Below, one piece after another: positions 3-3,000 of a stretch of 34,783 bases of DNA. This stretch comes from Anaerolineae bacterium (GTDB lineage: Bacteria > Chloroflexota > Anaerolineae > S140-20). Position numbers and translations under genes: made by a program. Each line of letters starts with the position of its first letter. Within the stretch, counting starts at the first letter, position 1. The stretch covers positions 1 to 34,783 of the forward strand of contig JALUTT010000084.1 in assembly GCA_027021705.1 (NCBI GenBank), in the 5' to 3' direction. The notes below the pieces were generated by a model. It ran no database searches. It was not told where the DNA came from and saw only the letters and a list, made by a program, of their open reading frames with translations.

Positions 3-3000
3 CGGTTGCCCGACTACATGGTTCCTTCCGCCTTCGTGACGCTGGAGGGGCTGCCCCGGACCCCCGGCGGCAAGGTGGATCGGCGGGCCTTGCCGGCCCC
101 CGAAGGGGAGCGCCCCTTCCTGGAGCAGGAATACGTCGCCCCCCGCACGCCGGAAGAGGAACTCATCGCCACCCTCTGGGCCCAGGTCCTCGGCCTGGAA
201 CGGGTGGGGGTCCACGACAATTTCTTCGAGCTGGGCGGTCACTCCCTCCTCGCCACCCAGGTCGTCTCCCGGCTGCGCGACGCCCTCCAGATCGAGGTGC
301 CCCTGCGCATCCTCTTCGAGCACCCCACCGTCGCCGAACTGGCGGAGCGCATCCGGGAAGAGCAGTGGGCTGCCCAGGGCATCGCCGCGCCCCCCATCGA
401 GCCGGTGCCCCGCGACGGAGACCTGCCCCTCTCCTTCGCCCAGCAGCGGCTCTGGTTCCTGGACCAACTGGAACCCGGCAGCCCCTTCTACAACATCCCC
501 ACGGCGGTGCGGCTCACCGGCCCGCTGGACGTGGCCGCGCTGGAGCGGAGCCTGAACGAGATCGTCCGCCGCCACGAGGCCCTGCGCACCACCTTCCCCA
601 CGGTGGATGGCCGGCCCCGCCAGCACATCGCACCGGAACTGACCCTCCCCCTGCCCGTGATTGATTTGCGGGGCCTGCCCGAGGCCGAGCGGGAGGCCCA
701 GGCGCTGCGCCTGGCCACCGAGGAAGCCCAGCGCCCCTTCGACCTGGCCCAAGGGCCTCTCATCCGGGCCCTCCTGTTGCAATTGGACGACGACGACCAC
801 ATCGCCCTCCTGACCATGCACCACATCGTCTCCGACGGCTGGTCTATGGGCATCCTCATCCAGGAGATCGCCGTCCTCTACGACGCCTTCGCCCAGGGCC
901 GGCCCTCGCCGCTGCCCGAGCTGTCCATCCAGTACGCCGATTTCGCCGCCTGGCAGCGGAAGTGGCTCCGGGGCGAGGTCCTGGAGCGCCAACTGAGCTA
1001 CTGGAAGGAGCGATTGGCCGACCTCCCGCCGCTGCTGGAGCTGCCCACCGACCGCCCCCGCCCCGCCGTCCAGACCTTCCGGGGCCGGACCCGGTCCTTC
1101 GTGCTGCCCGAAGCCCTCTCCCGGGCCATCCGGGAGCTGGGCCGTCGGGAGGGGGCGACCCTCTTCATGACCCTCCTGGCCGCCTTCCAGGCGCTCCTCT
1201 ACCGCTACACCGGCCAGGAGCGCTTCGCCGTCGGCACCCCCATCGCCAACCGGAACCGGGCCGAGATCGAAGGGCTCATCGGCTTCTTCGTCAACACCCT
1301 CGTGCTGCGGGCCGACTTCTCCGACAACCCCACCTTCCGTCAGTTGCTGAAGCGGGTGCGAGAGGTCGCCCTGGGGGCCTACGCTCACCAGGACCTCCCC
1401 TTCGAGATGCTGGTGGACGCCCTCCAGCCGGAGCGGGATTTGAGCCACACCCCCCTCTTCCAGGTGATGTTCGTCCTCCAGGACACCCCGACGGGGAGCC
1501 ACCGGCTCTCCCACCTGACCCTGAGCCCCGTAGAGGCCGAGACGGGGATCGCCAAATTCGACCTGACCCTCTCGATGGCCGAGGAGGGGGGCCTGCTGGG
1601 CGGCATGGTGGAGTACAACACCGACCTCTTCGACGCCGCCACCATCGAGCGGATGATCGCCCACTTCCAGACCCTGCTGGAGGGCGTCGTCGCCGACCCC
1701 AACCGGCCCATCGCCGAGCTGCCGCTGTTGACCGAGGCGGAGCGGCAGCAATTGCTCGTCGAGTGGAACGACACCCAGGCCGACTACCCCGAGGACCGGT
1801 GTGTCCACCGGCTCATCGAGGCCCAGGCCGAGCGGACGCCCGACGCCGTCGCCGTCACCTTCGAGGGCGCACACCTGACCTATCGGGAGCTGAACCGGCG
1901 GGCCAACCAACTGGCCCACCACCTGCGCAAGCTGGGCGTCGGGCCGGAGACGCTGGTCGGCATCTGCGTCGAGCGCTCGCCGGAGATGATCGTCGGCGTC
2001 CTGGGCATCCTCAAGGCCGGCGGCGCCTACCTCCCCCTCGACCCCACCCACCCGTCGGAGCGCCTGGCTTTCATGCTCCAAGACGCCGCCGTCCCCGTCC
2101 TGTTGGTGGACAGCCGGGGCGCTGAGGTGGCTGAGGCACTGAGGAATGAGGCACCGAGGGCTGAGGCGACCGAGGCACCGAGGGATGAAGCACCGGGGGC
2201 TGAGGCGGACAAGGCACCGAGGACTGAGGCGACCGAGGCACCGAGGACTGAGGCACCGAGGGCCGAGAAAGTGCACCCTCATCACGCTTCACGCATCACG
2301 CCTCACGCTTCACGCTTCACGCATCACGCTTCACGCATCACGCCTCACGCCTCACGCTTCACGCCTCACGCTTCACGCCTCACGCATCACGCCTCACGCC
2401 TCACGCATCACGCATCCCTCACCACCCTCCGCCTCGACGACTGGACCACCTTCGCCGACGAGCCGGACACCAACCCGGAGGTCCCCGTCACCCCCGACAA
2501 CCTGGCCTACGTCATCTACACCTCCGGCTCCACCGGCCGGCCCAAGGGTACCATGCTCCACCATCGGGGCCTCTGCAACACCGCCACCGCCCACGTCTAC
2601 CGGACCCCCGGCATCAGCCCCGACGACCGGGTATCGCAGTTCTTCTCCTCCAACTTCGACGGCTCCGTCGTCGAGATCTTCCCCACCCTGCTGGCCGGAG
2701 CCACCCTCTGCCTGGTCCGCCGGGAGATCGTGCTCTCCCCGTCGGACTTCCACCGCTGGCTCCGGGAAGAAGCGATCACCTACGCCGCGATGACCCCGGC
2801 CGCCCTCTCGGTGCTGCCGGCCGACGGGCTCCCGGCGCTGAGGACCGTCACCTCCGGCGGCGAAAGCTGCCCCCGGGAACTGGTCGAGCGCTGGGCCCCT
2901 GGCCGCCGCTTCCTGAACGTCTACGGACCGACCGAGGCGACGGTCCAGGTGACGATGTACGCCGCCGACGATCTGCCCGAGGAAGCGACCACCGTCCCCA

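Follow-up and report, generated by a model that had tools for sequence, protein, structure and literature searches.

A tandem-repeat insert in the loop after core motif A2 of an Anaerolineae nonribosomal peptide synthetase adenylation domain

The last adenylation (A) domain of a nonribosomal peptide synthetase (NRPS) from an Anaerolineae bacterium carries a long stretch of in-frame repeat DNA between its core motifs A2 and A3. The gene lies at the start of contig JALUTT010000084.1 (NCBI GenBank assembly GCA_027021705.1), of which we analyzed positions 1 to 34,783 of the forward strand, hereafter the window. We consider it probable, at roughly 60%, that the insert is a tandem-repeat expansion typical of the lineage, tolerated in a permissive loop between a helix and a strand after A2 and kept open by selection. 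An earlier note on this DNA, made from the letters alone, had proposed a phase-variation switch and, as a fallback, a tolerated invader of a permissive loop. It is the fallback that our results favor: the core motifs are intact, the A domain is predicted to be normal, and the loop is variable among relatives.

Organization of the repeat DNA

The NRPS gene is open at its 5' end, and its open reading frame (ORF) at 3..5237 encodes 1744 residues within the window, comprising the end of an upstream A domain followed by T, C, A, T and E domains, as read from the translation. Pfam recognized Condensation, AMP-binding (residues 606-1039), AMP-binding_C (1098-1173) and PP-binding in this ORF, and its C-terminal epimerization-type domain contains HHLVMDGVSW and matches TIGR01720. 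The A domain with the insert is the last of the NRPS, and the A3-A10, T and E signatures are present downstream of it. The motif names (A2, A3 and so on) and the regular expression used to find them are those that we take to be conventional. The features of the region are as follows.

3..5237, + strand: NRPS gene, 5'-open, hosting the insert (ORF list, translation, Pfam)
2013..2042, + strand: A2 core motif KAGGAYLPLD (sequence, translation, motif scan)
2121..2270, + strand: block 1, a purine-rich array of subunits of 7, 8 and 9 nucleotides (nt) ending in (Y)GAGG (Tandem Repeats Finder, subunit parsing)
2121..2147, + strand: first three subunits of block 1 (GCTGAGG TGGCTGAGG CACTGAGG), encoding AEVAEALR(N) (parsing; AlphaFold2 helix)
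2166..2405, + strand: low-confidence, probably disordered extra loop, residues 133-212 of the AlphaFold2 query (AlphaFold2, composition)
2271..2281, + strand: non-repeated spacer between the blocks, loop of a predicted RNA hairpin (sequence, RNA fold)
2282..2413, + strand: block 2, TCACGC[A/C/T] x18.9, 132 nt, 44 codons (Tandem Repeats Finder, pattern scan)
2415..2441, + strand: native segment SLTTLRLDD with the strand LRLD (loop alignment; AlphaFold2 strand 218-221)
2517..2549, + strand: A3 core motif YTSGSTGRPKG (sequence, translation, motif scan)

The basic observation of the earlier note, repeat DNA lying in frame and without a stop between A2 and A3, is borne out. Positions 2121-2414 amount to exactly 98 codons, stop-free in the frame of the ORF, with arrays detected by Tandem Repeats Finder and a spacing of 168 residues between the two motifs. 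The subunits of block 1 follow one another in lengths of 7, 9, 8 / 7, 8 / 7, 9, 8 / 7, 8 / 7, 9, 8 / 7, 9, 8 / 7, 8 nt, forming groups of 24, 15, 24, 15, 24, 24 and 15 nt, every one a multiple of three. Tandem Repeats Finder returned overlapping rows for 2121-2267 with periods of 15, 24, 39 and 63 only, and the encoded peptide is made of xEA(TEA)PR-type repeats. Since TGA is part of the units and appears as a stop in both other forward frames, only a triplet-compatible arrangement can remain open. The GC skew of block 1 (+0.17 to +0.37) runs opposite to that of the gene elsewhere, which is biased toward C, and block 2 exaggerates this bias.

Block 2 is an array of a different kind. Tandem Repeats Finder describes 2282-2413 as 18.9 copies of a period of 7 with 88% matches, a score of 187 and the consensus TCACGCC, and its peptide consists of HASR(I/L/F)T(P/H) heptapeptide repeats. 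A pattern of three successive units, TCACGCNTCACGCNTCACGC, has 17 exact matches, all within the array, against 0.01 expected from 100 shuffles. The block is free of stops in all three forward frames. Position 7 of the unit is A, C or T, never G, and differs in 14 of 18 neighboring pairs. No more than two adjacent units are identical, the longest perfect match at an offset of one unit is 13 nt, and the identity between neighboring units is 0.89, with 0.78-0.92 in the non-coding arrays of the window. Being stop-free and frame-keeping, both blocks bear the marks of a selection filter.

All 31-mers are unique across 2100-2430, which makes a collapsed or inflated assembly unlikely. The reading of the insert as an intein or intron was dropped, since inspection of the sequence found no intein-like boundary residues and Rfam gave no family match.

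Predicted structure of the A domain

The spacing of 168 residues between A2 and A3 is the longest among 264 A domains in 121 proteins (median 78, 5-95% range 75-92), and it also exceeds that of all 117 A domains in a set of 71 related loci covering 1.1 Mb (median 78, maximum 107). Structure prediction was among the checks suggested in the earlier note. AlphaFold2 was given a query of 597 residues and an alignment of 28 rows of A domains from the related loci, none with this insert, for which reason low confidence within the insert is partly built in. The resulting model is a complete A domain, with a mean predicted local distance difference test (pLDDT) score of 83.3 and a predicted template modeling score of 0.79. 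The only segment of three or more residues with pLDDT below 50 comprises query residues 133-212, encoded by 2166-2405. The flanks of this segment are modeled in place, with a helix at 115-126 (SRGAEVAEALRN; block-mean pLDDT 92 to 75) and the LRLD strand at 218-221.

As the helix includes 2121-2147, the first nine codons of the reported insert, AEVAEALRN, are predicted to be part of the native helix after the VLLV strand and not extra sequence. The low-confidence extra loop corresponds to 2166-2405. Foldseek matched the model to solved A domains, namely the TycA core 5n82 (target-normalized TM-score 0.97, root mean square deviation 1.5 Å) and 4d56 (0.88). The HMMER alignment to LgrA stops at query residue 120/121 and resumes at 220/226, where LgrA has 6-13 residues.

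Among the 98 residues of the insert there are 22 Ala, 12 Arg, 12 His, 11 Glu, 10 Pro, 10 Thr and 6 Ser, a composition that falls on the disordered side of a charge-hydropathy plot. No known domain was recognized within the insert: Pfam gave no family at E<=1 and the ESM Atlas no usable look-alike. Taken at face value, the model suggests a flexible loop of about 87-90 residues on an otherwise normal A domain, and the enzyme would probably retain its activity despite the insert.

The same loop in related synthetases

Comparison of the loop among relatives, a further check that had been proposed, gave a varied picture: some have no insert there, some a slight expansion, and some different repeat-derived peptides. 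Among collinear homologues at 61-69% identity, the A2-A3 spacing is 78 residues in P0070, which has no insert, 97 in P0004, 95 in P0010, whose loop carries ISESANQQISKSANQQ, and 151 in P0005. In the loop alignment, all these inserts lie between a helix (LLTQxxLxxxLP) and a strand (AxVICLD) that are normally 2-4 residues apart.

P0005 is the only other NRPS with the composite insert. This ortholog-like protein is collinear with that of the window, the two sharing 65% identity across 1761 alignment columns, with identities of 0.73-0.76 in the T, C and A-domain flanks. Within block 1, 33 of 50 columns are identical (66%, against 64% overall), including a run of 18 identical residues, EAPGAEADKAPRTEATEA, and the gap is exactly one unit of 8 codons. 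In the spacer and block 2, identity falls to 9 of 51 columns (0.18). The second half of the P0005 insert reads SLRPQTSDLGPQT..., and its tract LRPQTSD... contains no clean heptamer array; by back-translation, LRPQTSD can be periodic only as CTCAGAC, which would share a CCTCA core with the window array. The upstream A domain of P0005 has a shorter version of the same insert. In P0012, a protein from a named Chloroflexota, the two A domains are longer by 9 residues at this point, where they read TPHASRLT and TPHTSRLT, and back-translation suggests that TPHASRLT is the product of about 3.4 copies of TCACGCC.

We then excised the loop from 239 A-domain cores and calculated a FastTree tree from what remained. 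The nearest neighbor of the window domain in this tree is P0070_2, which is insert-free. Loops longer than 82 residues occur in 23 of the 64 members of the clade that includes the window and these homologous domains (support 0.91) and in 21 of 175 domains elsewhere, an odds ratio of 4.1 (Fisher p = 6e-5) that is descriptive only, as the domains are not independent. Among NRPSs longer than 3052 residues, none of 166 candidates had the insert, which is weak evidence.

The same helix-strand loop is occupied in five further A domains, all from one Chloroflexi metagenome-assembled genome (loci L001, L010, L013, with two, and L067), by a common insert of 28 residues (LPLRWGEGEPAPRSSTPHPASPRWGEGG...). 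The shared sequence points to inheritance by module duplication or conversion.

Short-unit arrays in the window and in related loci

The window contains four heptamer and three octamer arrays in 34.8 kb, of which five are intergenic or 5' of genes. Besides the NRPS array, they lie at 6598-6653, 6654-6699, 6705-6736, 8118-8148, 21851-21904 and 22013-22123. Counting units of 7-8 nt with at least 3.5 copies, we found such arrays in 10 of the 71 related loci, namely in 8 of the 13 from Chloroflexota or Nostoc and in 2 of the 58 others. This repeat class is common in the genome studied here and probably in its lineage, Chloroflexota.

Seven of these eight loci hold nine array sites with open frames that read as A-domain sequence, mostly in loops (a2-a3, PF...YKTGD and a8-a9). 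An octamer array lies directly before A3 in L002, heptamer arrays occupy the a8-a9 loop in L001, L007 and L067, and two Nostoc genes have arrays in the PF...YKTGD loop. The heptamer array of L051 lies in the conserved A-domain core, not in a loop, and a second array in L006 has no open frame. The a8-a9 spacing reaches 117 residues in L067, 88 in L019 and 83 in L007, compared with a median of 58 in 63 A domains, 9 of which are interrupted by whole domains at this point. In the a8-a9 loop of the Chloroflexota NRPS of L019 (10512-10610), four in-frame copies of AGGAGACA are followed by a spacer and 5.8 copies of the reverse complement. Another A domain of L019 has an a8-a9 interruption of 407 residues, apparently not methyltransferase-like.

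To find the insert peptide in other proteins, we scanned 1.84 billion representatives with HMMER, using the 98 residues as the query. At E<=1e-3, 452 proteins matched, nearly all to the HASRxTx half only, and most of them are short, probably spurious ORFs; the loops of YfhO and PMT_2-type membrane proteins are also among the matches. In a word-indexed region search, 9 of 1325 candidates passed. P0005 was the only NRPS; the remaining hits, from unrelated proteins, have the heptapeptide for the most part in loops or N-terminally, and one of them is from a named Anaerolineae. The occurrence of the heptapeptide in unrelated proteins and spurious ORFs indicates that the peptide tracks the DNA repeat, and not a protein family or function. 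The three-unit heptamer pattern was found in none of the 71 related loci. A dispersed composite element was rejected, as no second copy except that in P0005 turned up in the sequences covered, namely the representatives, the region search, the longer proteins and the 71 loci.

A probable repeat expansion filtered by selection

These observations can be joined in a simple scheme. Arrays of 7-8 nt would arise and turn over throughout the genome by replication slippage, from which we infer that the insert, too, originated, and selection would remove those that break genes. An array would survive inside a gene only if its full length left the frame intact, it contained no stop, and the protein tolerated the extra residues. 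TCACGCN, having no stop in any forward frame, could persist as a pure heptamer array, while the TGA-containing (Y)GAGG units could persist only as super-repeats of 15 and 24 nt that keep TGA out of frame. The insert would then be translated into a loop rich in Ala, Glu, Pro, Arg, His, Thr and Ser.

Several points weigh against this scheme. Between the window and P0005, the conservation of block 1 (66%) is level with that of the protein overall (64%), which hints at some constraint beyond pure neutrality. An mRNA hairpin is predicted beyond what composition accounts for (see below), and a passive model has no need of it. Nineteen non-triplet copies inside an essential part of a gene are exactly the layout of a contingency locus, and block 2, fully turned over between the two relatives, is labile. 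Finally, the disorder of the loop is judged from low pLDDT and composition alone, and low pLDDT is partly to be expected from the 28-row alignment.

Possible phase variation

The alternative that survives best, though we regard it as unlikely, is the switch proposed in the earlier note: slipped-strand changes in the copy number of TCACGCN would turn the terminal A-T-E part on and off and give a mixed population. The array does have a non-triplet unit of 7 nt in 18.9 copies inside a reading frame. The predicted frameshift was reproduced in silico, where changes of -2, -1, +1 and +2 units led to stops at residues 1068, 927, 1075 and 934, respectively, and changes of three units in either direction kept the frame. 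Between the window and P0005, it is the block 2 region that has changed fastest, and an in-frame heptamer switch has a precedent in neuO (PMC13001214). In addition, a second array in the cluster overlaps a gene start, with four copies of GCGACCAA forming codons 1-11 of a thioesterase gene.

Phase-variable loci are typically perfect tracts. The units of block 2, however, are imperfect, with their frequent differences at position 7 and an offset match of at most 13 nt, and the similarity of neighboring units is within the range of the non-coding arrays of the window. The array begins far from the 5' end, around codon 760 in a protein of more than 1744 residues, and phase-variable repeats are biased to the N-terminus (PMC3315296). 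The decayed, different tract of P0005 and the absence of any tract from P0070 argue against a conserved switch. All five loops with related tracts (that of the window, two in P0005 and two in P0012) are in frame, a weak argument given that protein databases under-report broken alleles. The array thus shares with contingency loci the non-triplet unit in frame and the loss of the product upon unit change in silico, and it lacks the perfect tract and the 5' position.

A broader version of this idea appears more doubtful still. According to it, arrays of 7-8 nt in Chloroflexota and cyanobacteria would be placed non-randomly in A-domain loops, namely those that also receive whole tailoring domains in evolution (a2-a3 and a8-a9) and the PF...YKTGD loop, with the heptamer half acting as a reversible A-T-E frameshift switch and the triplet half, paired to it in the mRNA, tuning loop length or translation. 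If true, a free-living bacterium would in this way hedge its bets on what a secondary-metabolite assembly line produces. Even in the simpler form, a heptamer that slipped at a useful rate would constitute an on/off switch inside an NRPS gene.

Predicted base pairing between the two blocks

The two blocks had been described as unrelated arrays. They are distinct, but partly complementary: block 1 contains three copies of TGAGGCG, whose reverse complement, CGCCTCA, is a rotation of the block 2 unit. Apart from these three exact pairs, four arms of 13 nt are shared between the blocks at 85% complementarity. Folded as RNA, 2110-2425 forms one long imperfect hairpin with a minimum free energy (MFE) of -133 kcal/mol, compared with -110.9 +- 5.3 for shuffled sequences (z = -4.2; 0 of 100 shuffles as stable). 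Shuffling within each block gave a similar result (-110.4 +- 5.1, z = -4.4, again 0 of 100), and reversing either block weakened the fold to -96 or -99. With DNA parameters, the excess vanished (-54.8 against -56.3 +- 4.3, z = +0.34, 64 of 100 shuffles as stable), from which it follows that the RNA signal rests on G-U pairs. This argues for an mRNA structure at most; a DNA cruciform is not supported.

Such a hairpin between the purine-rich block 1 and the pyrimidine-rich block 2 could act as an RNA-level element that slows ribosomes in the middle of the A domain or affects mRNA processing or stability. The stability beyond both kinds of shuffles, its loss upon reversal of a block, and the presence of exact pairs and arms speak for this possibility, as does the NRPS of L019, whose a8-a9 loop carries an array together with its reverse complement. 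That octamer pair is a true palindrome (RNA z = -6.3, DNA z = -7.3). On the other side stand the missing excess with DNA parameters, the lack of an Rfam match, and the single orientation of most in-gene arrays of the related loci. The insert of L001 in the same helix-strand loop was also considered as a hairpin, but is unstructured (RNA z = -0.49). Taken together, we find an RNA-level function quite improbable.

Very improbable, in our view, is a functional peptide module, in which a linker, docking surface or metal-binding tail would be provided by an acidic Pro/Ala/Glu part and a His-rich part (12 of 48 residues being His). The unusual composition and the conservation of block 1 at the protein average, with its identical run of 18 residues, would fit such a role. 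Neither Pfam nor the ESM Atlas offered a counterpart, however; the His-rich part is absent from P0005, P0070, P0004 and P0010, and the heptapeptide recurs in unrelated proteins and many short, probably spurious ORFs. Least probable of all is a misassembled array or a decaying module: although repeats are classic sites of misassembly, the 31-mers are unique, neither the frame nor any core motif is broken over 1744 residues, and the separately assembled P0005 bears a homologous insert in two A domains.

Comparison with known systems

Returning to the tolerated repeat expansion, we compared the insert with four known systems. The neuO gene of Escherichia coli K1, located on the CUS-3 prophage, contains 3-53 repeats of the heptamer AAGACTC and is ON when their number is divisible by three; 42 of 64 genomes are out of frame (PMC13001214). 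The window insert resembles it in having a coding tandem unit of 7 nt, a heptapeptide repeat, and a frame kept by multiples of three. In neuO, however, the repeats lie at the 5' end and vary from 3 to 53 copies among those 64 genomes (PMC13001214), whereas here they lie in the middle of the gene and their units differ at position 7.

The second comparison concerns A domains interrupted between A2 and A3 by a methyltransferase (M) domain, such as those of TioN and TtbB, which also have extra a2-a3 sequence in an otherwise complete A domain. Their inserts are class I S-adenosylmethionine (SAM) methyltransferase domains of about 260-270 residues with a GxGxG SAM motif (PMC8341866). A genuine A2-M-A3 domain also occurs among the related loci, in an Ardenticatenaceae bacterium (L051:1936-3687), where the motifs GGGWKSSYTG and LEIGCASG fit the type V pattern given in that source (PMC8341866). 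The earlier note was thus right that the A2-A3 region tolerates inserted domains, but the M domains come after the xLD strand and the window insert before it. In L051, the M domain follows VVLCIDSDD, one secondary-structure element later than the window insert, which precedes LRLD. The window insert, about 90 residues of low complexity with no Pfam family and no GxGxG, does not make its host an interrupted A domain of the TioN kind.

Rickettsia palindromic elements (RPEs) and in-frame miniature inverted-repeat transposable elements are likewise repetitive DNA lying in frame within functional genes at sites that the fold tolerates (PMC10969869). They are partly self-complementary, a trait that the window insert shows in its predicted RNA fold but not with DNA parameters. 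RPEs are dispersed families of elements of about 150 bp, whereas the window insert is built of tandem units of 7-9 nt. By analogy, the insert would work most like such fold-tolerated in-frame repeat insertions.

Finally, cyanobacteria and Beggiatoaceae have many arrays of 7-nt units per genome (TAACTGA and others; long simple sequence repeats), most of them between genes and many a short distance 5' of a start codon (PMC4679880; bioRxiv 10.1101/2022.06.06.494920). Repeats within coding sequence usually come in multiples of three (PMC4679880). The GGACTGA array of the window, 4 nt before the ATG at 6703, recalls the TAACTGA arrays of Beggiatoaceae (PMC4679880). The unit sequences differ, the host here has a high G+C content (about 69%), and the array that concerns us lies inside a gene. 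On this likeness, the insert would belong to the wider heptamer-array phenomenon of these groups. In the open-access literature that we searched, we found no report that links tandem repeats with adenylation domains or heptanucleotide repeats with Chloroflexi, and none on phase variation of an NRPS.

For NRPS engineering, the window offers a natural case of about 90 extra residues in the helix-strand loop after A2, with an A domain that looks intact. Tags or inserted domains might be placed in the a2-a3 loop described here, or in the a8-a9 and PF...YKTGD loops of the relatives. For genome biology, the insert would illustrate how the repeat habit of a lineage is filtered inside genes, where the stop-free heptamer stays and its stop-containing, partly complementary partner remains only in periods of 15 and 24 nt.

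Other arrays and neighboring genes

The other arrays of the window defined by Tandem Repeats Finder include the following.

6598-6653, + strand: ATAGCGGC x7.0
6654-6699, + strand: GGACTGA x6.6
6705-6736, + strand: GCGACCAA x4.0
21851-21904, + strand: GCAAGTT x7.7
22013-22123, + strand: CAAGGCG/CAAGGTG x15.9

Genes for an MFS transporter, a type II thioesterase and a HetI-like phosphopantetheinyl transferase follow the NRPS gene on its 3' side (Pfam and NCBIfam). The epimerization-ended NRPS (3561-5237) is followed by the transporter, thioesterase and transferase genes (5264-9154), not by a protein with a C domain. The acceptor of the epimerized chain and the release step are not encoded within the window, and the upstream A domain of the same NRPS gene falls outside it. 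No promoter- or terminator-like sites were found around the arrays at 5100-8300, and the scan for tRNA genes returned none.

The three arrays at 6598..6736 fill the whole gap between the MFS gene, which ends at 6577, and the thioesterase gene. The GGACTGA unit, which the earlier note had linked to block 1, is indeed shared, yet the link is modest: a single exact 11-mer, ACCGAGGACTG, is common to block 1 (2216) and the array region (6663). The GGACTGA array stops 4 nt 5' of the ATG at 6703. In the thioesterase ORF that begins there, whose first codons are the GCGACCAA octamers, no other in-frame ATG, GTG or TTG occurs before the conserved RLFCFPY. As a candidate for repeat-dependent expression, the region at 6586-6740 is better placed than the NRPS array.

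An octamer array, CCGACCAT x3.9, lies at 8118-8148, directly before the GTG at 8150 of the HetI-like phosphopantetheinyl transferase ORF. NCBIfam matches this ORF only from residue 88 onward, and its real start may therefore be further downstream. Two related arrays in the same orientation (21851-21914 and 22013-22132) extend from the stop of an HlyD-like gene up to an S8 peptidase gene, where a Shine-Dalgarno-like GGAAAGGAGAG at about 22170 suggests that the true start of the peptidase lies downstream of the array. At 34088-34783, where no Rfam family reached the gathering score, the G+C content is lower, and 5.0 copies of a 139-bp unit follow one another at 95% identity and run off the end of the window.

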